Assembly: GCA_045650745.1 (NCBI GenBank) | Contig: JAZRRN010000049.1 | Coordinates: 128,138 to 192,137, forward strand | DNA length: 64,000 nucleotides | DNA from: Candidatus Caccovivens sp. | GTDB lineage: Bacteria; Bacillota; Clostridia; Christensenellales; UBA1242 | Direction: 5' to 3' | Shown: positions 32,863-43,657 of the stretch, piece by piece | Layout: each line of letters opens with the position of its first letter | Numbering within the stretch: position 1 is the first letter of the stretch | Program-made: the position numbers and the translations under genes | Notes under the pieces: generated by a model | Seen by the model: the letters and a program-made list of their open reading frames with translations, nothing else | The model's database searches: none | What the model was told of the DNA's origin: nothing

Positions 32863-33609
32863 TTATTTTTCGAGATTGTTGTCTTTTTTATTTTTATTTT
32901 TTCGATTTAGATATATCTGTTTTGTTTTTGCATAAAAATTATCAAATTTTTGTTCAGCTTTTTTGCCAAGTTTGCAATATTTGACAACAAAGAATGTTGG
33001 GACCATAATTGCAAATGATGCAACAAAGTCAATCCAATAGTGTTGTTTTGTAAACACTGTTGACATACAAACCAAAATGCCGATTATTGTGCCAATGATG
33101 CGATATGACCAATGCATTTCTTTTGTGTCGATGCAAGCAAGGCAGCAAGCCAAGCCCATGTAACAATGTTGAGAAGGAAACACATTTGTTGGGTGACTTG
33201 CATTCCAAGTCCAAACCACAAGTTTGTCTGTAAACGAATCTGGTGTGAAGTCAGGTTTGACAAATCTTGATTGGAAGAAGAAATAGATGATGCCCGAAAT
33301 CAAGAAACTTACCACCAAAGTCAAAAAGATGTTGTAAAGTTTTGTTTTGTTTTTGTATGCCAAATAGAAAAATGTCAAAAGTCCAGCAGGGAATGTAAGG
33401 TAATATATGTAAACAAATGCTGGCACGAGTGGGATTTTGTCATCAAGTGGTGTGTGTGGCCAAGTTGTGCCATAATGCCAATCGCCAGGTTGAGTTCCGT
33501 TTGTGATGACTTGGTTGAGATACCAACTGAGCAAAAGCGAAACTATAAAAAGCACCAACGGAAAAATTGAATAGCTGATTTTTTTGATAAAGTTTATGAT
33601 TTTAGTCAT
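32863..33609 (-). CDS. PAP2-superfamily (PAP2_3 / sphingomyelin-synthase-like) integral membrane protein
   Basis: Multi-TM protein with FPSQH and TKQHYWID motifs that resemble PAP2 C2/C3 motifs. The start overlaps the XRE stop by 8 nt. Confidence 0.5.
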   Translation of the reverse strand: MTKIINFIKKISYSIFPLVLFIVSLLLSWYLNQVITNGTQPGDWHYGTTWPHTPLDDKIPLVPAFVYIYYLTFPAGLLTFFYLAYKNKTKLYNIFLTLVVSFLISGIIYFFFQSRFVKPDFTPDSFTDKLVVWTWNASHPTNVFPSQHCYMGLACCLACIDTKEMHWSYRIIGTIIGILVCMSTVFTKQHYWIDFVASFAIMVPTFFVVKYCKLGKKAEQKFDNFYAKTKQIYLNRKNKNKKDNNLEK

Positions 33610-34249
33610 CGGATTGTCCTTCTTTTGTTTCTAATTCTTTTTGAGCAAGTTTTTTTCTTTTTTTAATTTTGATTTGAGACCACAAAATCCATACAACTTG
33701 TGCAGGAATGCCAATGAAGTAAAGTGGCCAAAGATTGATTATGCTCAAAAATTGCAAATGGAATGAGAGCAGCAGTGTCCAAGTGAAAACAGACAGTGCT
33801 ACAAAGTTGAAGATTGGTTTGCCCCAAAGTGCGTTGCAAATCAAAAGAGAGATGGAGCATGTTGGGATTGCCCAGATAAACAATGTCCACACAATTTTGT
33901 CTGCAAAAATACGCAAAAAGACATAAAGCAAAATTGCCACCAGCCACACGCAACTTGCCGAAAGCAAAGTGATGACAATTCGGTTGGTTGTCCAATTGCT
34001 TTCTTTGGTTTTTGCCACGATTGCGAGTTTGTTTTTGAGGTTGTCTTCAATCAAACTGTTCATGTTGATGTTGTAAAATTTGCTGAGTTGCCAAAGGGTT
34101 TCAACATCAGGGACTGCGTCGCCATTTTCCCATTTTGAAACAGTTTTGTCAGAATAACTCAACTTTTGAGCAAGTTCGCTTTGGGTGAGTTTGTTTGCTT
34201 TTCGCAAATATGCAAGATTTTCTGCCAAGTTTTTAAATTTGTTTTCCAT
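33602..34249 (-). CDS. XRE-family HTH transcriptional regulator with C-terminal multi-TM domain
   Basis: The N-terminus LRKANKLTQSELAQKLSYSDKTVSKWENGDAVPDVETLWQLSKFYNINMNSLI is a classic HTH_3. About 4 hydrophobic helices follow. Confidence 0.85.
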   Translation of the reverse strand: MENKFKNLAENLAYLRKANKLTQSELAQKLSYSDKTVSKWENGDAVPDVETLWQLSKFYNINMNSLIEDNLKNKLAIVAKTKESNWTTNRIVITLLSASCVWLVAILLYVFLRIFADKIVWTLFIWAIPTCSISLLICNALWGKPIFNFVALSVFTWTLLLSFHLQFLSIINLWPLYFIGIPAQVVWILWSQIKIKKRKKLAQKELETKEGQSDD

Positions 34250-34255
34250 AGCAGC

Positions 34256-34284
34256 ATTTTAGCATAAAATTGCCTAAAATACAA
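34256..34284 (-). promoter_or_regulatory. Promoter TTGTAT-17-(TGc)TAAAAT placed 6 nt before the XRE ATG (apparent leaderless mRNA)
   Basis: -35 at 34284-34279 and -10 at 34261-34256. ATG is at 34249 and no SD lies between. Confidence 0.5.
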
Positions 34285-34295
34285 GCAAAAACCAA

Positions 34296-34369
34296 CAAAT
34301 TCTCTTCTGATGAGAGTTGAGAAAAGTGCATTCTCTCGTAATTAGAGAGTTTAAATTTTCTCTCTTTTT
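34296..34369. promoter_or_regulatory. Array of CTCTC/GAGAG inverted repeats in the divergent XRE/GT8 control region (candidate operators)
   Basis: GAGAG at 34312-16 and 34345-49. CTCTC at 34333-37 and 34360-64. TTCTCT at 34300-05. GAGAGTT occurs twice, 33 nt apart. Confidence 0.35.
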
Positions 34370-34407
34370 GCAATCTCAAAGAGTAGAATGGAAAACGGTT
34401 AATTCTA

Positions 34408-34437
34408 TTGAATTTTGTGCATAATCATTGTTAGAAT
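34408..34437 (+). promoter_or_regulatory. Candidate promoter TTGAAT-18-TAGAAT for the GT8 gene
   Basis: -35 at 34408-13 and -10 at 34432-37. SD AAGGAGG lies upstream of the ATG at 34483. Confidence 0.4.
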
Positions 34438-34482
34438 GAGGACAACACGAAGGCCAGAAAGGCGTTCGTAAAGGAGGTTATT

Positions 34483-35322
34483 ATGAAAAAAGAAATCGTA
34501 TCCTTGGTTTTTTCCGTTGACAACAACAGTTTGCCATTTTTTGGCGTAACACTCAAAAGTATTTCGTCAACTTGTGATAAGAAAAGAATTTATGATATTT
34601 ATGTTTTGCATGCAGGACTTGATGCAAAAAATCAAAAAAGAGCAAAAAAAGATTTGCCACTAAACTTCAACATTCAATTTGTTGATGTTTCCGAACAATT
34701 GAAAAATGAAGAATGTGCCATCTTGAAAAATTATGGTCAAGCAAAAACAAACTTCTTCAAAATTTTTGCTGCACAAATTTTCGCAAATTTGGACAAGGTG
34801 TTGTATTTGGATTCGGATCTTGTTGTTTTGGAAGATATCAGCAAACTTTATGACACCAACATAAAAGACAAGCTTGTTGGCGCTGTTATGGATTTGTCTG
34901 TCGAAAACTCTAAAAAAGAAACAGAAGAAGTTGAAAAAGCATACAACATTGATCCTTCAAGATATTTCAACACAGGGGTTTTGCTTATGAATCTTAAACA
35001 AATGCGCAAAATCAACTTCCAACAACGATATCTCAAAACTTTGCAAGATTTGGATTCGGTTGTTTCGCCAGAACAAGATTGCTTCAATGTTGTGTGCAAA
35101 TATCAAGTGAGTTACATTGATTTTTATTGGAATGTTATGCCGATAGAAGATGTTTGCCCAGATGATGAAGTCAAACTTATCAACTACAGCAAATTGTGGA
35201 AACCTTGGATTTGCGAAAAAACAAAATTCAGCAAAGAGTTTTGGAATGTTGCCTTTGAAAGTCAATATTATGAAGATGTGCTCAGTGTCAAATTGAAATA
35301 TTCAAAAGGTTTTGTATGTTAA
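34483..35322 (+). CDS. Glycosyltransferase family 8
   Basis: YLDSDLVV (DxD), FNTGVLLMNLKQMR and EQDCFN motifs, ~279 aa. Confidence 0.8.
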   Translation: MKKEIVSLVFSVDNNSLPFFGVTLKSISSTCDKKRIYDIYVLHAGLDAKNQKRAKKDLPLNFNIQFVDVSEQLKNEECAILKNYGQAKTNFFKIFAAQIFANLDKVLYLDSDLVVLEDISKLYDTNIKDKLVGAVMDLSVENSKKETEEVEKAYNIDPSRYFNTGVLLMNLKQMRKINFQQRYLKTLQDLDSVVSPEQDCFNVVCKYQVSYIDFYWNVMPIEDVCPDDEVKLINYSKLWKPWICEKTKFSKEFWNVAFESQYYEDVLSVKLKYSKGFVC

Positions 35323-35326
35323 AAAA

Positions 35327-35352
35327 AGTGGACAAACTTGTCCACTTTTTCT
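35327..35352. terminator. Bidirectional terminator between GT8 and gatB
   Basis: AGTGGACA/TGTCCACT stem with an A-run upstream and a T-run downstream. Confidence 0.8.
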
Positions 35353-35389
35353 TATTTTTACAGATATTTTGTCAGTTTTTGAAAACTTA

Positions 35390-36805
35390 TCAACCAAACA
35401 ATTTTGCAATCAAGGCTTTTACCAATTCGCCATTTGCTTTGCCGGCTGTGTTTTTCATAACATAACCAACGATAAAACCGATAACTCTTTGAGGTTCTTT
35501 CTTGTAGTCTTCAACTGCTTTTGGATTGCTGTCTTTGAATGCTTGCAAGAGTGATGTGATTTGTTCTTCTGAAATTGTTGTCAAAAGTCCAAGTTCTTTT
35601 GCAAGAGTCATAGGATCTTTTCCTGTTTGAGCAACTTGGTCAAGAAGTTGAAGTCCAACAGTTTTGTTGATTTTCTTTTCGTCAACCATCTTGATGATTT
35701 CTGCAAGTGGTTGTTCGGCGATAGGAAATTCGAAAACTTCTTCTTCCTTTACGAGCTTGAGAAGGTCTGTCAAAATCCAGTTGCTGATTTTCTTTGGTGC
35801 ATCATAGCAAGCAACACATTTTTCGAAATAATCTGAAATATATTTGCTTGATGTCAAGATGCCTGCATCGTATGCTGGCAAACCAAACTTTGTTTGATAC
35901 ATTTCTCTTCTTTCAACTGGAAGCATTGGCATTTCGCCTTTGATGCGAAGCACATCTGCCAAGTCAACTTCGATTGGCAAAATGTCTGGATCTGGGAAGT
36001 AGCGATAATCTTGTGCTTGTTCTTTTGATCTCATTGCTGTGTTTTTGCCTTTGTCGTCGCTCCATTTTCTTGTTTCTTGAATGACTCTTTCGCCACTGCC
36101 CAAAACTTCGGATTGTCTTTTGATTTCATATTCGATTGCACGAGTTACACTCTTGAAAGAGTTGAGGTTTTTCATTTCAGTTCTTGTTCCAAACACTGGC
36201 GAACCTTTTGGTTTGAGTGACAAGTTGACATCGCATCTCATTCCACCTTCTTCCATTTTACATTCGGCAACATTTGCAAAAACAAGAGCTTCTCTGACTT
36301 TTTTCAAAAAGTCGTCAACTTCTTCTGCTGTTGAAAAATCTGGTTCGGTTACGATTTCGATAAGTGGTGTTCCACCACGGTTGTAGTCAACCAAAGTGCC
36401 AACGCTTTTGCTGATGTGAGTGAGTTTGCCAGCATCTTCTTCCAAATGGATTCTGTTGAGGCGAACTTCTTTTCCACTGTCAAGTTTTACTGATCCACCT
36501 TCGCAAAGAGGGTGAACCATTTGGCTGATTTGATATGCTTTTGAAAGGTCAGGATAGAAATAGTTTTTTCTTTCCATAACTGCATAGTCAGCAATCTTGC
36601 AACCAAAGCAAAGGCCTGCTTTGATGCAAAGTTCGACTGCTTTTCTGTTTATGATTGGGAGAGCCCCAGGCATGCCTGTGCAGACAGGGCAAGTGTTTTT
36701 GTTTGGATCAGCACCAAATTCGTTTTTGCAACTGCAAAAAATCTTTGTGTTTGTCTTGAGTTCGGCATGAACTTCAAGGCCGATAACTACATCAAATGCA
36801 GACAT
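35390..36805 (-). CDS. gatB: Asp-tRNA(Asn)/Glu-tRNA(Gln) amidotransferase subunit B
   Basis: VIGLEVHAEL.T.TKIFC.C, NT..CPVC.G.PG.LP, and a YqeY-like C-terminus; 471 aa. Confidence 0.95.
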   Translation of the reverse strand: MSAFDVVIGLEVHAELKTNTKIFCSCKNEFGADPNKNTCPVCTGMPGALPIINRKAVELCIKAGLCFGCKIADYAVMERKNYFYPDLSKAYQISQMVHPLCEGGSVKLDSGKEVRLNRIHLEEDAGKLTHISKSVGTLVDYNRGGTPLIEIVTEPDFSTAEEVDDFLKKVREALVFANVAECKMEEGGMRCDVNLSLKPKGSPVFGTRTEMKNLNSFKSVTRAIEYEIKRQSEVLGSGERVIQETRKWSDDKGKNTAMRSKEQAQDYRYFPDPDILPIEVDLADVLRIKGEMPMLPVERREMYQTKFGLPAYDAGILTSSKYISDYFEKCVACYDAPKKISNWILTDLLKLVKEEEVFEFPIAEQPLAEIIKMVDEKKINKTVGLQLLDQVAQTGKDPMTLAKELGLLTTISEEQITSLLQAFKDSNPKAVEDYKKEPQRVIGFIVGYVMKNTAGKANGELVKALIAKLFG

Positions 36806-36807
36806 GT

Positions 36808-38214
36808 CTAGTCCTCCTTAATCTTTTTTGCAACATCATACAAGAGATGTTCGCTGTGTTTTTTTCCAATCACTTGAAGTCCAAGTGGCAATCCGTTTTC
36901 TGCAGTTGCATAAGGTATGCTTATTGCAGGCACGCCAGCAATGCTTGCAGGCACGGTAAACAAATCTTCCAAATACATAGAAATTGGGTCGTTTGCCTTT
37001 TCGCCAATCTTGAATGCTGTGTAAGGTGTTGTAGGGGTGATGATTGCATCGCAATCTGCAAATGCATCTTCAAATTCTTGTCCAAGCCAAGTTTGAAGTT
37101 TGCGAGCTTTGTTGTAATATGCGTCAAAGTATCCACTTGAAAGCACGAAGTTTCCAAGAATAATTCTTCTTTTTACTTCTTTGCCAAAACCTTCGCTTCT
37201 GCTTTTGATGTAAACATCTTCCAAAGTTTTTGTGTCTGTCGCTCTTGTTGTGTATTTGACTCCATCAAAACGAGCAAGGTTTGAAGTTGCTTCGGCAGGA
37301 GTAAGCACATAATAGCAAGGCAAACTGCTTTCAATGTGTGGAATGTCAACTTCAACAAATTCAAATCCTTTTTGTTTAAGTCTTTCGATTTCTTTTTCAA
37401 AATAAGTTGCACTAGCAGATTTTTTGATTGAGTCTGCAAGTTGTTTGCAAAGTCCAAGTTTGTAAGTTGATTTTGTTTCAGCTTTTTTCAAGTCGATTGA
37501 AGTTTGGTCGTTTTCGTCTTTTCCGGCCATAATATCAAAAACATATTGGTTGTCTTCAACTGTTTTTGTGATTGGGCCAGCTTGATCTGTTGAGCTTGCA
37601 AAAGCCACAAGGCCAAATCTTGAAATTGCACCATAAGTTGGTTTGATGCCAACCACACCGTTAAACGAACTTGGTTGTCTTACAGAGCCACCAGTGTCTG
37701 TGCCGATTGCAATAGGTGCAAGGTCTGCTGCAACTGCCACAGCACTTCCACCACTGCTTCCACCAGAAACATAGTTTGGGTCGATTGCATTTTTGCAAGG
37801 ACCGTAAGCGCTGTTTTCGCAACTTCCACCCATTGCAAATTCGTCCATGTTTGCACGGGCGATAATGATTGCACCTTCTGCTTCAAGTTTTTTGACGATT
37901 GTTGCAGAGTAAGGAGAAACAAAATCTTGCATAAACTTGCTTGCGCAAGTCATCTTTTTGCCTTTGTTGAGAATGTTGTCTTTGATGATGATTGGCACAC
38001 CAGCAAGTTTGCCAAGTGTTTGTCCTTGAGCGATTTTGCTGTCAACTTCTTTTGCTTTTTCTATTGCATCATAAAAGATTTCCAAAACAGCGTTGAGGTC
38101 TTGCTTCTTTTCGCATTGTGAGATGTAAAAAGAAACAACTTCTTCGCTTGTAAATTTTTGCGTTTTAATCCCTTCGACCAATTCTTTTACGGTCAATTGT
38201 GTAAAATCTGTCAT
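36808..38214 (-). CDS. gatA: Asp-tRNA(Asn)/Glu-tRNA(Gln) amidotransferase subunit A
   Basis: Amidase signature GGSSGGSAVAVAA...DTGGSVRQP. The start is set at MTDFTQ, whose ATG overlaps the gatC stop as TAATG. The ORF track extends 10 codons further. Confidence 0.95.
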   Translation of the reverse strand: MTDFTQLTVKELVEGIKTQKFTSEEVVSFYISQCEKKQDLNAVLEIFYDAIEKAKEVDSKIAQGQTLGKLAGVPIIIKDNILNKGKKMTCASKFMQDFVSPYSATIVKKLEAEGAIIIARANMDEFAMGGSCENSAYGPCKNAIDPNYVSGGSSGGSAVAVAADLAPIAIGTDTGGSVRQPSSFNGVVGIKPTYGAISRFGLVAFASSTDQAGPITKTVEDNQYVFDIMAGKDENDQTSIDLKKAETKSTYKLGLCKQLADSIKKSASATYFEKEIERLKQKGFEFVEVDIPHIESSLPCYYVLTPAEATSNLARFDGVKYTTRATDTKTLEDVYIKSRSEGFGKEVKRRIILGNFVLSSGYFDAYYNKARKLQTWLGQEFEDAFADCDAIITPTTPYTAFKIGEKANDPISMYLEDLFTVPASIAGVPAISIPYATAENGLPLGLQVIGKKHSEHLLYDVAKKIKED

Positions 38215-38492
38215 TATTCCACCACCATTGGAGTTACATAGCAACCATCTTTTTTCTTTGGTGCGTTTGCAACTACATCACATTGTTCTTTTGCGACAAC
38301 TTCGTCTTCACGAAGTTGAGACAAGCAAACTGCTTTCGACTTGTCTTCAAGTTCTGGCAAATCAAGTTGAGTGATTTGGTCAACAAAGCCAATGATGTTG
38401 GCAAAATCTTTTTCAAACTTTTCTTTTTCGGCATCATCAATTTTGAGTTTGCTTAATGCCTGCAAATATTCGATATCAAATTTTTGTTCCAT
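38214..38492 (-). CDS. gatC: Asp-tRNA(Asn)/Glu-tRNA(Gln) amidotransferase subunit C
   Basis: 92 aa with the LREDE motif, positioned immediately upstream of gatA. Confidence 0.9.
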   Translation of the reverse strand: MEQKFDIEYLQALSKLKIDDAEKEKFEKDFANIIGFVDQITQLDLPELEDKSKAVCLSQLREDEVVAKEQCDVVANAPKKKDGCYVTPMVVE

Positions 38493-38502
38493 TTTCTGCT
38501 CC

Positions 38503-39804
38503 TTAAGGTTTCAATCTGCTTGGTCCACGGAAGAGGAATATGCTGTCTTTGAGTGATTGCAAATCCAAAAGTTTTGAAATAAATCTGTCAATTCCAAAAC
38601 CAATTCCGCCGTGTGTAGGGCAACCATACTTGAAAAATTCGAGATAGTCAGCCATTTTAGAACTGTCGATGCCGTGTTCTTCGATTTGTTGTTTGAGTTG
38701 AGCATATCTATGTTCTCTCACAGCACCACTGTTCATTTCCCAACCTCTATATAACATATCAAAACCCATACAGTCAAACGAATCATCTGTGATTTTCTTT
38801 GAATAGAATGCTCTTGCTTCTGCTGGATAATCTGTGATAAACACAAATTCGCTGTCAAGATAATCTCTTGTATATTCGCAAATCAACTTTTCAGCTTCTG
38901 GGTCAAGGTCGAGTTGTTTTTCTTCTGGTGTTTCAATTCCATAAACATCTCTAAAGATTTGGAAAACTTCTTTAAGTTTAAGTCTTGGGATTTTTGTTGG
39001 CACTTTGACTTCGATATCAAAAATTTCTTTGATTTGTGTGCCATAAGTTTCTTTGATTTTTCTCATAACATAAAGCATCCAATCTTCTTCAACATCAATG
39101 ACATCGTGATGTGATTTTACATGGGCGATTTCAAAGTCCAAGCAAACAGCTTCGGCTGTGTGTCTTGCAGTAAATGATTTTTCTGCTCTGTAATATGGTC
39201 CAATTTCAAACACTTTGTCAAAACCACTTGCAATCGCCATTTGTTTGTAGAATTGTGGACTTTGTGTCAAATATGCTTTTTGTCCATAATAGTCAAGAGT
39301 GAAAACTTCTGCACCACCTTCAGAGCATTGAGAAGTGATTTTTGGTGAGTGGATTTCGATGTAGCCACGATCAACAAAATATTCTCTCATCTTTGCTTCT
39401 GCAAAAGTTCTGATTTGGAAAATCAATCTTTGTTTTTGTTGTCTAAGATCAATCCATCTGAAATCCATTTTAAGTTCGCCAGCAGTTTGTTCGTCAATAG
39501 GCAAATCTTCTGCCAAGCTTTCAATTTCGATGCCAGAAGGCACGAGTTCGATTTGTCCCAATTTTACGCATGGGGCAGAAACAACTTTTCCCCAAATTGT
39601 CACAACGCTGTGACGAGAAATTTTGTCAAAGTCTGCCGATGCGAGTTCGGCAATCTTGTCTTTTTCAATTGCGACTTGAATGCTTCCTGTTGTGTCTGTC
39701 ACAACGAGAAACATCATTGTTTTTTGTTCTCTAATTTTTTCGATCCAACCTGAGATTTTGCAAATTTCATCAACTTGGACATCTTTAATATAAGTTCTTT
39801 TCAT
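38503..39804 (-). CDS. aspS: Aspartate--tRNA ligase, archaeal/eukaryal-type (AspRS2; probably non-discriminating, Asp-tRNA(Asn)-forming)
   Basis: 433 aa, class IIb. The runs IEIHSPKI...EGGAEVF...QSPQFYKQ, FRAE, GG.REHR, and the C-terminus PTHGGIGFGIDR...FRGPSRLKP align with my recollection of Pyrococcus/Thermococcus-type AspRS rather than AsnRS. It is directly coupled to gatCAB. Confidence 0.8.
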   Translation of the reverse strand: MKRTYIKDVQVDEICKISGWIEKIREQKTMMFLVVTDTTGSIQVAIEKDKIAELASADFDKISRHSVVTIWGKVVSAPCVKLGQIELVPSGIEIESLAEDLPIDEQTAGELKMDFRWIDLRQQKQRLIFQIRTFAEAKMREYFVDRGYIEIHSPKITSQCSEGGAEVFTLDYYGQKAYLTQSPQFYKQMAIASGFDKVFEIGPYYRAEKSFTARHTAEAVCLDFEIAHVKSHHDVIDVEEDWMLYVMRKIKETYGTQIKEIFDIEVKVPTKIPRLKLKEVFQIFRDVYGIETPEEKQLDLDPEAEKLICEYTRDYLDSEFVFITDYPAEARAFYSKKITDDSFDCMGFDMLYRGWEMNSGAVREHRYAQLKQQIEEHGIDSSKMADYLEFFKYGCPTHGGIGFGIDRFISKLLDLQSLKDSIFLFRGPSRLKP

Positions 39805-39957
39805 TTTTTATCTTCCTTTTTTATTTTTATTTGTTTGATTTTTTTTTGGTTTTACGGAAACCATCACCGTCCTAAATTTTTATATCTACACTGCCCTTTG
39901 GGGCATTATTAAATTTGTGATAAAACTTTGTTTTCATATTTTCTCCTGATTATAAAC

Positions 39958-39990
39958 AAAAAAGAGCAGATGTGGGTTCCATCTGCTCTT
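39958..39990 (-). terminator. Intrinsic terminator of the aspS-gatCAB leader (attenuator)
   Basis: Minus strand reads AAGAGCAGATG-GAACCCA-CATCTGCTCTT, a perfect 11-bp stem running into a T-run. It lies ~150 nt upstream of the aspS ATG. Confidence 0.85.
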
Positions 39991-40017
39991 AGTTGAAGTT
40001 TTTATTTTCCGTTTTGA

Positions 40018-40104
40018 TTAAACGGCATAACAAAAGGAACCCATTATAGCTAATGTGTTGAAATTGTTATTATTGTTATTAACCAAAACAAACAATTTTG
40101 ACAT
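40018..40104 (-). CDS. Leader peptide MSKLFVLVNNNNNNFNTLAIMGSFCYAV (28 codons, 7 Asn, 6 consecutive)
   Basis: SD AAGGAG (40118-40113) lies 8 nt before the ATG at 40104. The Asn run AAT AAC AAT AAT AAC AAT is at 40080-40063. TAA is at 40020-40018. The ORF is sandwiched between a consensus promoter and the terminator. Confidence 0.6.
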   Translation of the reverse strand: MSKLFVLVNNNNNNFNTLAIMGSFCYAV

Positions 40105-40138
40105 AAGTCTGGCTCCTTAAATTTTTATTTGCGATGTT

Positions 40139-40167
40139 ATTATACCACTGCTGAGAGATTATGTCAA
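40139..40167 (-). promoter_or_regulatory. Consensus sigma-70 promoter TTGACA-17-TATAAT driving the leader/aspS-gatCAB operon
   Basis: -35 at 40167-40162 and -10 at 40144-40139. Both hexamers match consensus perfectly with a 17-nt spacer. Confidence 0.8.
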
Positions 40168-40284
40168 CACTTTTTTCGCTTTTCCGTTTTGAAAAAACGC
40201 TCTCGTATGCTATATATAATATATATTATTAGTCAAATTTTTTTCATTTATTAAGCGTAAAAATTTTGACTTTGGGAGAAATTT

Positions 40285-41742
40285 ATGAAAAATTTTGGAG
40301 TGTTGTGCCATGTTACATGCCTTCCTGCAAAAACAGGGCTTGGTGATTTTGGCAAAAGTGCATTTGAGTTTTTGGATTTTTTGAAAGAGCAAAATCTCAA
40401 CTTGTGGCAAATTTTGCCACTCAACAATGCAAACGAATTCAACTGCCCGTATGGTCCACTCAGCACTCAGGCGATTGATGAAATGTTTGTTGATCTTGAT
40501 GATTTGAAAGACAGGGGGTTGCTTGAAGAGAAAGAGTATAAGCACCTTTACAAATTCAAAAAAACAAAAAAGGTTAAGTTTGCCAAAATAAGACCAGAAA
40601 AAGAGAGATTGTTTGCCCTTGCTTATTCGAGAATTGACAAAAAGACAATCGCAAAACTTGAAGAGGTTGCAAAAGAGAAAAAGCACTTTTTTGAGTATGC
40701 ATATTATCGCACCATGCTTGCAAAGTTTGGTCAAAAGAGTTGGCGTTTTGTTGAAGATAAATATTGGAATATTTATGGAAAGACCGGCCAAAAGTTTGCA
40801 AAAGAAAACCAAGCTGATATTTTGAAGTTTGTGTTTTTTCAATATGTTTTGCATGAGCAATGGGCAAAGATAAAAAACTATGCAAACAAACTTGGCATAA
40901 AGATTTTGGGCGATGTGCCAATGTATTGCGACAAAGACAGCGTTGATGTTTTTGCTGGCAAAGCGTGGTTTAAGTTGGACGACAATTGCATGCCAACAGT
41001 CACAGCAGGTTGTCCACCAGATGTGTTTTCTGATGTTGTGCAAGATTGGCAAACTTGCATTTATCAATGGGAGAAAATGAAAAAAGACAACTTCTCATAC
41101 ATGACAAACAGATTGTGTTTGCTTTTGGATAAATACGACCTGTTGAGACTTGATCATTTTGCAGGTTATGTGAGATATTACGAGCACGCAAAAGCGCCGG
41201 GCACAAAAACTCAATATGTCGATGGTGGTGGAAGCGAATTTTTTGCACAACTTAAAAAACTTGTCGATTTCAAAAAGCTTTTTGTGGAAGATTTAAGTGA
41301 CGAAAAAAGTGCGACAGGCAAGGTAATAAAAGAGTTTTCACTTCGCAAAATGAATGTTTTGCAATATGGTTTTGATACAGACAAAAACAATCCACATTTG
41401 CCACAAAATGTAAAAGCAAACATTGTGTATTACACCGGCACCCACGACAGCGCAACCTTTTTGGGATATTTGAAAAAACAAAACAAACAACAGATTGAAA
41501 AGATAAAAAACTTGATTGCATCTCAAGCAAAAAATCATAAAGAGTTGCAACTTGACTGCATCAGAAGCATGCTTGATTCAAAAGCGCAATATGTTGTTTT
41601 GCAAGCGCAGGACTTTATGTTTCAAGATGACCGTTGGCGTATGAACTATCCGGGCGTTGCAGCAGGTTGTTGGGAATATAGATTGTGCAACGACTATCAA
41701 AAAAAGATGGCAAAAATGCTGGCACAACTTGGTCAAAAATAA
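40285..41742 (+). CDS. malQ: 4-alpha-glucanotransferase (amylomaltase, GH77)
   Basis: The N-terminus FGVLCHVTCLPAKTGLGDFGKSAFEFLDFLKEQNLNLWQILPLN is typical of GH77; 485 aa. Confidence 0.85.
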   Translation: MKNFGVLCHVTCLPAKTGLGDFGKSAFEFLDFLKEQNLNLWQILPLNNANEFNCPYGPLSTQAIDEMFVDLDDLKDRGLLEEKEYKHLYKFKKTKKVKFAKIRPEKERLFALAYSRIDKKTIAKLEEVAKEKKHFFEYAYYRTMLAKFGQKSWRFVEDKYWNIYGKTGQKFAKENQADILKFVFFQYVLHEQWAKIKNYANKLGIKILGDVPMYCDKDSVDVFAGKAWFKLDDNCMPTVTAGCPPDVFSDVVQDWQTCIYQWEKMKKDNFSYMTNRLCLLLDKYDLLRLDHFAGYVRYYEHAKAPGTKTQYVDGGGSEFFAQLKKLVDFKKLFVEDLSDEKSATGKVIKEFSLRKMNVLQYGFDTDKNNPHLPQNVKANIVYYTGTHDSATFLGYLKKQNKQQIEKIKNLIASQAKNHKELQLDCIRSMLDSKAQYVVLQAQDFMFQDDRWRMNYPGVAAGCWEYRLCNDYQKKMAKMLAQLGQK

Positions 41743-41748
41743 AAAAAT

Positions 41749-41774
41749 AGAGGCAAAATTTTGCCTCTTTTTTG
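41749..41774. terminator. Bidirectional terminator between malQ and the convergent minus-strand operon
   Basis: AGAGGCAAA/TTTGCCTCT stem with an A-run upstream and a T-run downstream. Confidence 0.8.
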
Positions 41775-41778
41775 TTGG

Positions 41779-42183
41779 TTAGTTTATTTTTGAAAAGTCG
41801 TTTCCAATTATTGTAGGGTTGAAACCTATCAGCTCGTCTTTCAGCATATTGTCAGGGATTTCGTTGACGAAGTAAATCTTTTTGTTCATTCTGAAAGCAT
41901 CATAAATTTCCAAAAATGTAGCCCCACCAATGTAGTTTGCTTGTCCGTTTTTGTTGAAGTTGAGCACCAAAACGGCATCAACATTTTTTATTGCTTCTTC
42001 CGATTGCCTATACATTTGAGCTTTGAAGATATGGTGTTGTGCAGTGCCACGATATTTTGCCTCTGTCTCTGGGGCGTCCCAGCAGTTTGGCATAAACACT
42101 TCGTGTCCCAAATTTTCTAAACTTTGTTTATATTCTGTCAAATTTCCATAAAAAGCTTTGCTGCATATCAACATTATTTTCAT
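41779..42183 (-). CDS. Nucleoside 2-deoxyribosyltransferase-like (flavodoxin-like fold) small protein
   Basis: 134 aa. The pattern AVLVLNFNKNGQANYIGGATFLEIYDAF..NKKIYFVNEIP resembles the NDT/DUF4406 clan. The call is from memory only. Confidence 0.35.
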   Translation of the reverse strand: MKIMLICSKAFYGNLTEYKQSLENLGHEVFMPNCWDAPETEAKYRGTAQHHIFKAQMYRQSEEAIKNVDAVLVLNFNKNGQANYIGGATFLEIYDAFRMNKKIYFVNEIPDNMLKDELIGFNPTIIGNDFSKIN

Positions 42184-42215
42184 GACTTTCTCCTGTTGGT
42201 GTTATGTCTGCAAAA

Positions 42216-42878
42216 TCAAAGCAAGTTTAATGTTGCCAAGTTTTTGTCAGTGTAATTTTTGATTGTCAGTTTTGTGATTTCTTTTATTTTGTCGGCATTT
42301 TTCTTGTTGTATTTGTGCACAAGTCCACAACTGTCGATGTTGAGAGAATGAGCACTTGTCAGTGATGCAAACGAATCTTCAAACAAGAAAATGTCTTCTG
42401 CTTTGCACTTCAATTGTTTCAAGCACTCTTCATAAAATTGCACGCTTCTTTTTGGTTGCGCCAAACTTTCTTCGGTGTAAATGTGATCAAAATGTCCATC
42501 AAGGCCATAATGTTTGAGCGCAATTTCCAAAAGATATTTGCTGGTTGCAGAAACCAAGACAAGCGAATATCCTTTTGCTTTGAGATTGTTGAGAAGTTCT
42601 CTTGCGCCATTTATAAGTTTGATTTTGTGGGTGTAATAATATTCCATGCGATTGTTCCAAAAATCAACAACTTCTTGTGCTTGCACATTTTGCAATTTTG
42701 TAAGATCAATAAAGAGTTGGGCAATCTCATGATTGCTGAGACCTTTTCGCAAAGTGAGAATGTCTTTCACAAACTTGACATTCCAATGTTTGAAGGCTTC
42801 TTTGTGCATAACCTTATACCAAAGTGTGAGAGAGTCAACAAGTGTGTTGTCAAAGTCGAAGAGAATATATTTTTTCAT
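42216..42878 (-). CDS. HAD-superfamily hydrolase
   Basis: Motif I ILFDFDNTLVDS. The start is set at MKKYILF (ATG at 42878). The ORF track adds 6 codons. Confidence 0.75.
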   Translation of the reverse strand: MKKYILFDFDNTLVDSLTLWYKVMHKEAFKHWNVKFVKDILTLRKGLSNHEIAQLFIDLTKLQNVQAQEVVDFWNNRMEYYYTHKIKLINGARELLNNLKAKGYSLVLVSATSKYLLEIALKHYGLDGHFDHIYTEESLAQPKRSVQFYEECLKQLKCKAEDIFLFEDSFASLTSAHSLNIDSCGLVHKYNKKNADKIKEITKLTIKNYTDKNLATLNLL

Positions 42879-42889
42879 AAGCCGTCCTT

Positions 42890-43657
42890 TTAGCAAGTTA
42901 AAATTTCTTTGGATTCATCATACAACAATTTTACAAAAGAAGCAAATTCTTCTTTTGAAAATTGCGAACCTCTTGGTGGAAAACATTCCAAGCAGTTTGA
43001 AATGTTTTTGTCTGTTGTGAGTTGTTTTGCAAACCAAACAAGATCTATCTCTCCATCTTTTGGACAACGGTGATCGTCTTGACCAAAATTGTTGTGTATG
43101 TGTGAGCAAGCTACATACGGCTTGCATTGTTCAAACAATTGTTTTTCATCCGTATAACAATGGGCATGTCCAACATCAAAACAAACGGCAACATTTTTCA
43201 AGCCAAGTTGCAAAATGCGGAAAAGGTTTGTGCAGTTTCTTACATTTTCAAGGCACAAAACGGTTTCTTGGTTGACAAAATTTTTCATCATCTTTTCAAA
43301 CTTGTCAAGTTGTGGTTGTGCCAACAAAGGTGGATTGTCTCCTTTGGAAGCGTGAGCCACAACATATTTTATTTGCAACAAATTTGCTTCGGCAAGTTTT
43401 TGCGAGATGTAGTCAAAATATTCGTTTGTGTTTGGGTCGCAGATAGAGTTTGACAGGTGATAATCCAAGTGAACTTGTTTGACAGTCAACCCAATTTCTC
43501 GGGCATAACTGATGATGTCAACATAGTTTTCGTCGTTGCGATTGTGCTTGTCGTCAAGATAAAGAGCAACTTCTGTGAAACCTGCTTGTTTGTAGATTTC
43601 AAGTCGATCTTTGTATGTTAAATCAGAACACAAATTCAAATCATAAATGCCAAACAT
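42890..43657 (-). CDS. Sugar-phosphate isomerase/epimerase (xylose-isomerase-like TIM barrel) family protein
   Basis: 255 aa with FDVGHAH and ...HIHNN... metal-ligand-like motifs; SD AGGAG. Confidence 0.55.
   Translation of the reverse strand: MFGIYDLNLCSDLTYKDRLEIYKQAGFTEVALYLDDKHNRNDENYVDIISYAREIGLTVKQVHLDYHLSNSICDPNTNEYFDYISQKLAEANLLQIKYVVAHASKGDNPPLLAQPQLDKFEKMMKNFVNQETVLCLENVRNCTNLFRILQLGLKNVAVCFDVGHAHCYTDEKQLFEQCKPYVACSHIHNNFGQDDHRCPKDGEIDLVWFAKQLTTDKNISNCLECFPPRGSQFSKEEFASFVKLLYDESKEILTC

Follow-up and report, generated by a model that had tools for sequence, protein, structure and literature searches.

A short upstream reading frame with tandem asparagine codons, followed by an intrinsic terminator, precedes the genes of a transamidation operon in a 64-kb stretch of DNA (hereafter the window) from Candidatus Caccovivens sp. 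(contig JAZRRN010000049.1). In this study, this leader, located on the minus strand at positions 39958-40167 of the window, was analysed computationally together with the operon that follows it, and all evidence for its function is of this kind. The operon is one co-oriented cluster consisting of aspS, which encodes an aspartyl-tRNA synthetase (AspRS), and gatC, gatA and gatB, which encode the Asp-tRNA(Asn)/Glu-tRNA(Gln) amidotransferase (Table 1), and the same gene order is found in related genomes. The original prediction for this locus had identified the genes as archaeal-type aspS and gatCAB, and profile matches above curated cutoffs agree with this assignment. We consider it highly probable that the leader is a ribosome-mediated transcription attenuator that senses Asn-tRNA(Asn) and controls the non-discriminating aspS together with gatCAB, in which case both the specificity (Asn) and the target (the transamidation operon) would be new for this type of control.

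The consensus promoter, the Shine-Dalgarno (SD) sequence, the 28-codon upstream open reading frame (uORF1) with its six plus one Asn codons, the hairpin at the stop codon and the 11-bp terminator all lie where the original prediction had placed them (Table 1). The -35 box TTGACA occupies 40167-40162 and the -10 box TATAAT occupies 40144-40139, with an extended -10 TG at 40147-40146; a promoter scan of 39000-41000 returned this promoter as the sole 12/12 match. The SD sequence and ATG of uORF1 follow about 35 nt downstream. From promoter to terminator the leader measures only about 200 nt, and uORF1 fills much of that length. Runs of at least five AAY triplets (Y, C or T) occur at one place in the window, namely in this leader, with 0.04 expected. 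The fold of the 186-nt leader is markedly more stable than that of shuffled sequences (z = -5.8), and in the minimum-free-energy fold of the untranslated leader AAGGAGCC, in the SD region, is paired with GGGUUCCUU. Four structural hallmarks of a ribosome-mediated attenuator are found in this leader: a uORF with its own SD sequence, tandem cognate codons, a terminator before the genes, and a conserved antiterminator that excludes the terminator.

Table 1. Features of the leader and the aspS-gatCAB operon, listed in the direction of transcription
Feature	Position in window	Strand	Basis or remark
Sigma-70-type promoter, TTGACA-17 nt-TGnTATAAT	40167-40139	-	12/12 consensus match
SD of uORF1, AAGGAG	40118-40113	-	8 nt before ATG
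uORF1, 28 codons, MSKLFVLVNNNNNNFNTLAIMGSFCYAV	40104-40018	-	Open reading frame list; homologous uORFs in 12 relatives
Six tandem Asn codons, AAT AAC AAT AAT AAC AAT	40080-40063	-	Proposed ribosome stall site
Seventh Asn codon, AAC, after one TTC	40059-40057	-	Sequence
Segment 2 (antiterminator 5' strand), UGGGUUCC-U-UUUGUU, including motif GGGUUCCUUUU	40043-40029	-	Invariant columns of alignment A2; duplex energy
Small hairpin, CCGUUU-AAUCA-AAACGG	40025-40009	-	Folds; lies across the TAA stop of uORF1 (40020-40018)
Intrinsic terminator, stem AAGAGCAGATG/CATCTGCTCTT, 11 bp, loop GAACCCA	39990-39962; T-run to 39958	-	Terminator scan
SD of ORF2, AGGAGA	39947-39942	-	Sequence; strong SD directly after terminator
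ORF2, MKTKFYHKFNNAPKGSVDIKI	39937-39872	-	Present with SD and ATG in all close relatives and L169
Asn codons of ORF2, AAT AAT	39910-39905	-	In frame, adjoining hairpin
Hairpin of ORF2, GCCC-CAAA-GGGC	39904-39893	-	Directly after Asn codons
aspS, archaeal-type non-discriminating aspartate--tRNA(Asn) ligase, 433 amino acids	39804-38503	-	NF003483, 416 bits (cutoff 353)
gatC	38492-38214	-	TIGR00135, above cutoff
gatA (open reading frame)	38244-36808	-	TIGR00132, above cutoff
gatB	36805-35390	-	NF004012, above cutoff

The antiterminator complementarity between 40043-40029 and 39987-39973 is exactly as the original prediction described it. The 3' strand of this helix consists of the 5' arm of the terminator (39987-39980) and its loop (39979-39973), so that the two hairpins exclude each other. 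Within the helix, UGGGUUCC (40043-40036) is complementary to GGAACCCA (39980-39973), and beyond one U.U mismatch UUUGUU (40034-40029) is complementary to AGCAGA (39987-39982). The duplex of segment 2 with the 5' half of the terminator has an energy of -20.4 kcal/mol (z = -4.3). When the nascent RNA is folded before the 3' arm of the terminator exists, the antiterminator is predicted at -22.5 kcal/mol (z = -4.6), with 0/200 shuffles as good, and the same long-range helix is predicted in every relative. The small CCGUUU/AAACGG hairpin sits within the loop closed by the antiterminator helix. Its sequence is not conserved, and relatives carry other small hairpins or a GUUGAUUAAC repeat at this place. 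This direct repeat, present in L001, L081, L091, L170 and L213 and absent from the window, has one copy after GGGUUCCUUUU and one just before the 5' arm of the terminator; it is self-complementary with G-U wobbles and lengthens the antiterminator helix.

The AspRS of the window is 99% identical to proteins labelled 'MAG: Clostridia bacterium', and the closest match among species representatives of the genome collection, at 70% AspRS identity, comes from an uncultured Catabacter metagenome-assembled genome (locus L001). A scan of genomes with the AspRS alignment returned mainly homologues of 40-47% identity, owing to peptide patterns that were too general, and yielded L001 and L058 as the only leader carriers. 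Among the matches listed from a DNA-pattern scan of metagenomes, most were eukaryote-like low-complexity sequences, and only L169, L170, L179 and L181 were genuine. Twelve distinct relatives were checked, namely eleven loci with AspRS 62-73% identical to that of the window and gatCAB downstream (L001, L081, L082, L083, L084, L086, L089, L091, L170, L212 and L213) and L169; upstream DNA was also recovered for L179, which is counted among the AspRS homologues of 62-73% identity. The whole leaders were aligned using MAFFT (alignment A2). The uORF and motif aligned well and the terminators did not, and A2 was therefore left out of pair-by-pair covariation counts and covariance modelling; per-sequence folding energies compared with shuffles served as structure tests in their place.

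Conservation, on which the original prediction was made to depend, proved strongly positive: a uORF with an Asn run, the motif GGGUUCCUUUU and a terminator are present in 12/12 relatives. Every distinct close locus shows the common order of promoter, SD-ATG uORF, GGGUUCCUUUU, spacer, terminator and aspS-gatCAB, and all relatives show a TTGAC(A/T) -35 box ahead of the uORF. The relative uORFs carry 6-10 tandem AAY codons each (12/12), measure 17-29 codons and encode peptides that are constant in the Asn run only, as illustrated by MFSFVTVNNNNNNNNNTLNLMGSFCVVD, MIRFINNNNNNLNNFTQK and MIRIIDNNNNNNCANNTKNVGFLLYC. The bases of GGGUUCCUUUU, by contrast, are invariant or nearly so in A2. In 8 leaders this motif is translated as M-G-S-F and in L213 as V-G-F-L, and it lies 1-2 nt past the stop codon in L082, L086, L089, L170 and L179. 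Since it occurs in two reading frames or after the stop among the leaders, the motif is selected as RNA and not as peptide.

The terminators behave in a complementary manner. Their stems vary among relatives, each remaining self-complementary (AAGAGCAGAUG, CGGAGUAGG, AAUAAUGUAAGGG, AAGUGGAAAGG, AGCGAAGCAGG and others), and in every loop a GAA(N)CC-like sequence complementary to GGUUCC is retained, a feature not called for in an ordinary terminator. Pairing of the motif region with the loop and 5' arm of the terminator was scored against dinucleotide shuffles in 15 leaders; the duplex energies range from -13 to -22 kcal/mol, with p<=0.05 in 12/15. A masking scan was also performed, in which the 5' end of the RNA was masked stepwise to mimic a ribosome and the terminator probability was calculated at equilibrium. 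In 8 leaders (L001, L081, L082, L089, L091, L170, L212 and L058), this probability is high with the whole leader free, collapses at boundaries between the Asn run and the motif and at no others, and is high again once the motif is masked. The terminator is favoured in the free leader because upstream purines hold the motif, and this pattern matches the 1:2 / 2:3 / 3:4 logic of classical attenuators.

The distribution of the leader follows the operon. In L169, the same Asn leader, motif, terminator and second reading frame (ORF2, described below) stand on the reverse strand about 290-140 nt upstream of a bacterial-type aspS of 577 amino acids, which is followed by gatCAB; because this aspS is bacterial-type, the leader goes with the function of the transamidation operon and not with one AspRS lineage. 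The leader is absent at AspRS homologues that have no gatCAB downstream (P0068 and P0076), and most of L002-L080 are without it. Downstream gatA was found in 6/80 genome loci, and 2/6 of these (L001 and L058) carry the leader. L058, in which AspRS is 44% identical and gatA lies downstream, has at 2820-2960 a 16-codon uORF, MFTLVNNNDNNNDNTI, with the mixed Asn and Asp codons NNNDNNNDN. Just after the stop of this uORF lies UUGGGUUUUUAUUG, which is complementary to the terminator loop and 3' arm over 14 nt without mismatch and gives a perfect 14-bp antiterminator; ORF2 is lacking. An Asp codon also stands directly before the Asn run in L170 and L213. The Asp codons of these three loci hint that some leaders may sense both products of the non-discriminating AspRS.

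From these features we infer ribosome stalling, a kinetic choice of structure and a response to Asn, which would operate as follows. Transcription would start at the consensus promoter, and a ribosome would load on uORF1. When Asn-tRNA(Asn) is plentiful, the ribosome would pass the 6-7 Asn codons, move onto or past GGGUUCCUUUU and reach the stop codon; the terminator arms would then pair, causing RNA polymerase to stop at the T-run (near 39958). With Asn-tRNA(Asn) in short supply, the ribosome would stall within the Asn run, 14 nt or more upstream of segment 2. The free segment would pair with the emerging loop and 5' arm of the terminator, and this antiterminator would be kinetically trapped, so that the terminator is not nucleated and transcription reads through into aspS-gatCAB. 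Where there is no translation, segment 2 would be held by purine-rich sequence upstream (the SD sequence in the window, the AAY run in relatives), and termination would therefore be the default.

The geometry required for a ribosome switch, as proposed in the original prediction, is upheld in its first half and only partly in its second. In every leader, 14-26 nt separate the end of the Asn run from the motif; with a footprint assumed to reach about 10 nt beyond the A-site codon, a stalled ribosome never occludes the antiterminator strand, because this distance exceeds that footprint. A terminating ribosome covers the motif fully in the 5 leaders that have their stop codon 1-2 nt upstream of it. 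In 8 leaders, including that of the window, the stop lies 21-28 nt after the start of the motif; there translation runs through the motif, and a ribosome positioned at the stop covers the motif's 3' half.

Several observations weigh against control by attenuation as described. Where the stop lies downstream of the motif (8 leaders), a ribosome standing on it would mask the motif only in part; in the window, with the stop in its A site, it would cover UUUGUU and extend no further than the edge of UGGGUUCC. In the intramolecular test, L086, L089, L169 and L058 show no significant advantage of the antiterminator over shuffles (p about 0.15-0.23), and L170 and L213 are borderline (p about 0.05). 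At equilibrium, the terminator is favoured at every masked boundary in the window, L083, L084, L086, L213 and L169. The comparison of energies suggested in the original prediction thus gave a divided answer for the window, since the nascent antiterminator (-22.5 kcal/mol) exceeds the terminator stem alone (-16.7 to -16.9 kcal/mol) and yet equilibrium favours the terminator at every ribosome position. A kinetic switch, in which the antiterminator forms first, is therefore required. The two states of the window leader lie only about 2 kcal/mol apart with an estimated refolding barrier of about 19 kcal/mol, and a switch in which the first-formed structure wins is plausible according to these models. 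In addition, the aspS-gatA loci L009, L017, L039 and L065 have no such leader, which makes it lineage-restricted, and if GatCAB also makes Gln-tRNA(Gln), control by Asn alone would be awkward.

Other explanations of the leader were weighed against attenuation by a ribosome. The terminator could be a conditional attenuator run by a trans-acting factor or a tRNA-binding RNA (a T-box-like element, an RNA-binding protein, or AspRS/GatCAB), with the Asn uORF being incidental. Aminoacyl-tRNA synthetase leaders in Firmicutes are usually T-boxes, the amidation operon of Clostridium acetobutylicum is T-box controlled according to a title cited in PMC4206432, and the window leader alone shows no equilibrium switch. 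However, an Rfam 15 covariance-model search of 33000-43000 at a permissive threshold (E<=10) found no T-box (RF00230) or other relevant family; its only overlap with the leader was SpF61, at chance level (22 bits vs a gathering score of 60; E = 7.4). Nor was a T-box found upstream of aspS in an Rfam search of 20 more distant aspS loci, and the positive control for the T-box search gave a T-box in L028 with 129.5 bits. Moreover, the short leader is largely taken up by uORF1, the SD sequence, ATG and in-frame pure AAY run are kept in 12 relatives while other residues drift, and the spacing of run, motif and stop suits ribosome footprints. Control of this kind is accordingly very improbable.

We regard it as just as improbable that the terminated leader with its A-rich (AAN)n tract works as an RNA and not as a codon sensor, serving as a small RNA or a Hfq/ARN-type protein-binding site that constitutive termination would release, although a function in trans may exist beside attenuation in cis. 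Such a role has some precedent, because a terminated attenuator RNA can act in trans, as described for rnTrpL in Sinorhizobium (PMC7968998), and the AAYAAY repeats fit an A-A-N repeat pattern. A protein-binding A-A-N tract, however, needs no limit on its third position, which is always C/T and never A/G in 13/13 leaders; the AAY run is also always in frame with SD-ATG, and the antiterminator logic is conserved. Least likely of all is that uORF1 is there for an Asn-rich micropeptide with a function of its own, or that it responds, in the manner of ermC, to slower translation in general and not to Asn-tRNA(Asn) specifically, since the apparently conserved peptide end ...LMGSF of 8 leaders is countered by a stop before GGGUUCC in 5 leaders and another frame in L213, by a length of 16-29 amino acids with only the Asn run constant, and by regulated enzymes that make exactly Asn-tRNA(Asn). 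A functional leader peptide was rejected on the ground that reading frame and stop position vary among leaders.

The leader also contains a conserved second uORF (ORF2) that was missing from the original prediction (Table 1). The one feature conserved in ORF2 is an in-frame Asn codon, in some cases with an Asp codon after it, that abuts a 4-bp GCCC-N3-6-GGGC hairpin, with R-A (R, A or G) coming after the hairpin. The strict motif AAY(GAY)GCCC-N3-6-GGGC-RA occurs only at this leader position in about 1.3 Mb of loci. Three tandem 30-nt modules are present in L213 and two in L214, and L170 has one module followed by a second G+C hairpin that is preceded by an Asp and not an Asn codon. Because the loop length varies, the hairpin is selected as RNA, although it is always in frame. 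ORF2 was searched for a second terminator, long-range pairing to the aspS SD sequence and hungry-codon frameshift products, and nothing consistent was found; the free 3' arm of the terminator pairs only weakly with the ORF2 SD sequence (-3 to -8 kcal/mol), as expected from composition. One speculation is that ORF2 provides another place for Asn-dependent stalling, with effects on the stability of the mRNA, access of Rho or pausing of the polymerase. A two-stage sensor of Asn-tRNA(Asn), in which the attenuator is followed after read-through by a new kind of stall module in ORF2 and ribosomes ignore the Asp-tRNA(Asn) intermediate, is a tentative proposal that we hold to be rather doubtful; if true, it would explain why a leader peptide replaces a T-box for the transamidation operon. 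Between ORF2 and aspS, about 40-60 nt upstream of aspS, a weak terminator-like hairpin (AAACAA...UUGUUUGAUUUUU) was observed in L170, L213 and L214; it is confined to this one sub-clade and absent from the window.

Additional features were recorded around the leader and elsewhere in the window. A TATAAT box at 39954-39949 on the minus strand overlaps the end of the terminator T-run and is preceded at a distance of two bases by a TG. In L001 a perfect TGnTATAAT occupies the position matching 39949-39957 of the window, and the box is not kept in most relatives; it may be a weak internal promoter for basal expression. The divergent gene upstream of the leader encodes 4-alpha-glucanotransferase. 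At 41682-41830, sub-threshold Rfam matches on both strands (psbJ-3, STnc40 and rli43) seem to stem from a G+C hairpin, GAGGCAAAAUUUUGCCUC, between A and T runs, which is probably a bidirectional terminator after malQ. On the plus strand, a giant open reading frame of 9307 amino acids (123-28046), in which Listeria-Bacteroides repeat domains (Flg_new, PF09479, and Flg_new_2, PF18998) were found in three 1000-amino-acid samples, probably encodes a huge surface or adhesin protein.

Classical leader-peptide attenuators include trpL, hisL, leuL, thrL, pheL and pheM of the pheST synthetase operon of Escherichia coli. The present leader resembles them in having a promoter, a short reading frame with tandem cognate codons and mutually exclusive antiterminator and terminator hairpins before the regulated genes, as well as a predicted termination by default when there is no translation, and like pheM-pheST its target includes an aminoacyl-tRNA synthetase. 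It differs in its Asn specificity, in a target that is a transamidation operon and not a pathway of free amino acids, in its low-GC Clostridia host, and in a segment 2 formed by an anti-SD-like motif able to pair with the SD sequence of the uORF itself. In line with the original prediction, which knew of no standard annotated leader class for Asn that controls aspS-gatCAB, none of the curated leader-peptide families of Rfam 15 (the His, Leu, Thr, Trp and leu/phe leaders and others) matches the leader, and no description of an Asn leader peptide or of leader-peptide or attenuator control of aspS/gatCAB was found in the literature searched. Regular leader-peptide attenuation in place of a T-box is rare in Gram-positive bacteria; it is described for a His leader before a hisS paralogue/hisZ in Bacilli (Naville & Gautheret 2010, PMC2965389), which likewise precedes a gene of a synthetase family, and for a Leu-rich ilv-leu attenuator peptide in Staphylococcus aureus (PMC5794164). 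The present leader would share this rare mode of control and differs from both in amino acid and operon, shows no sequence similarity to them, and adds ORF2.

A close functional counterpart is the tRNA-dependent amidation operon of C. acetobutylicum, which is under T-box control as far as the titles cited in PMC4206432 convey (Saad et al. 2012 JBC; Saad et al. 2013 PNAS). Going by these titles, both systems provide an extra AspRS and GatCAB for Asn-tRNA(Asn) in Clostridia with nearly the same gene set, and both would use a terminator/antiterminator switch in the 5' leader that responds to the status of tRNA(Asn), as predicted here for the window. The two differ in that no T-box is present here and the sensor would be the translating ribosome instead of direct tRNA binding; unlike that T-box, it should answer only to Asn-tRNA(Asn) delivered by EF-Tu and not to any acylated tRNA(Asn). 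An in-silico survey of T-boxes reported none before amidotransferase genes (PMC2494555).

If the attenuator reading is true, asparagine joins the short list of amino acids sensed by leader-peptide attenuation, and a second, mechanistically different control of tRNA-dependent Asn synthesis exists in Clostridia beside the T-box of C. acetobutylicum. The difference between the two sensors concerns the intermediate of the pathway. The ribosome receives no Asp-tRNA(Asn) intermediate from EF-Tu, and a ribosomal sensor would therefore report the finished product, Asn-tRNA(Asn). A T-box discriminates only charged from uncharged tRNA, and misacylated Asp-tRNA(Asn) would count as charged; a tRNA-binding riboswitch cannot separate Asp-tRNA(Asn) from Asn-tRNA(Asn). 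The leader would thus offer a natural test of the idea that, in two-step aminoacylation, a ribosomal sensor reports the final product, and it represents a compact and well-conserved candidate Asn-responsive switch from uncultured gut Clostridia that is suited to reporter work.

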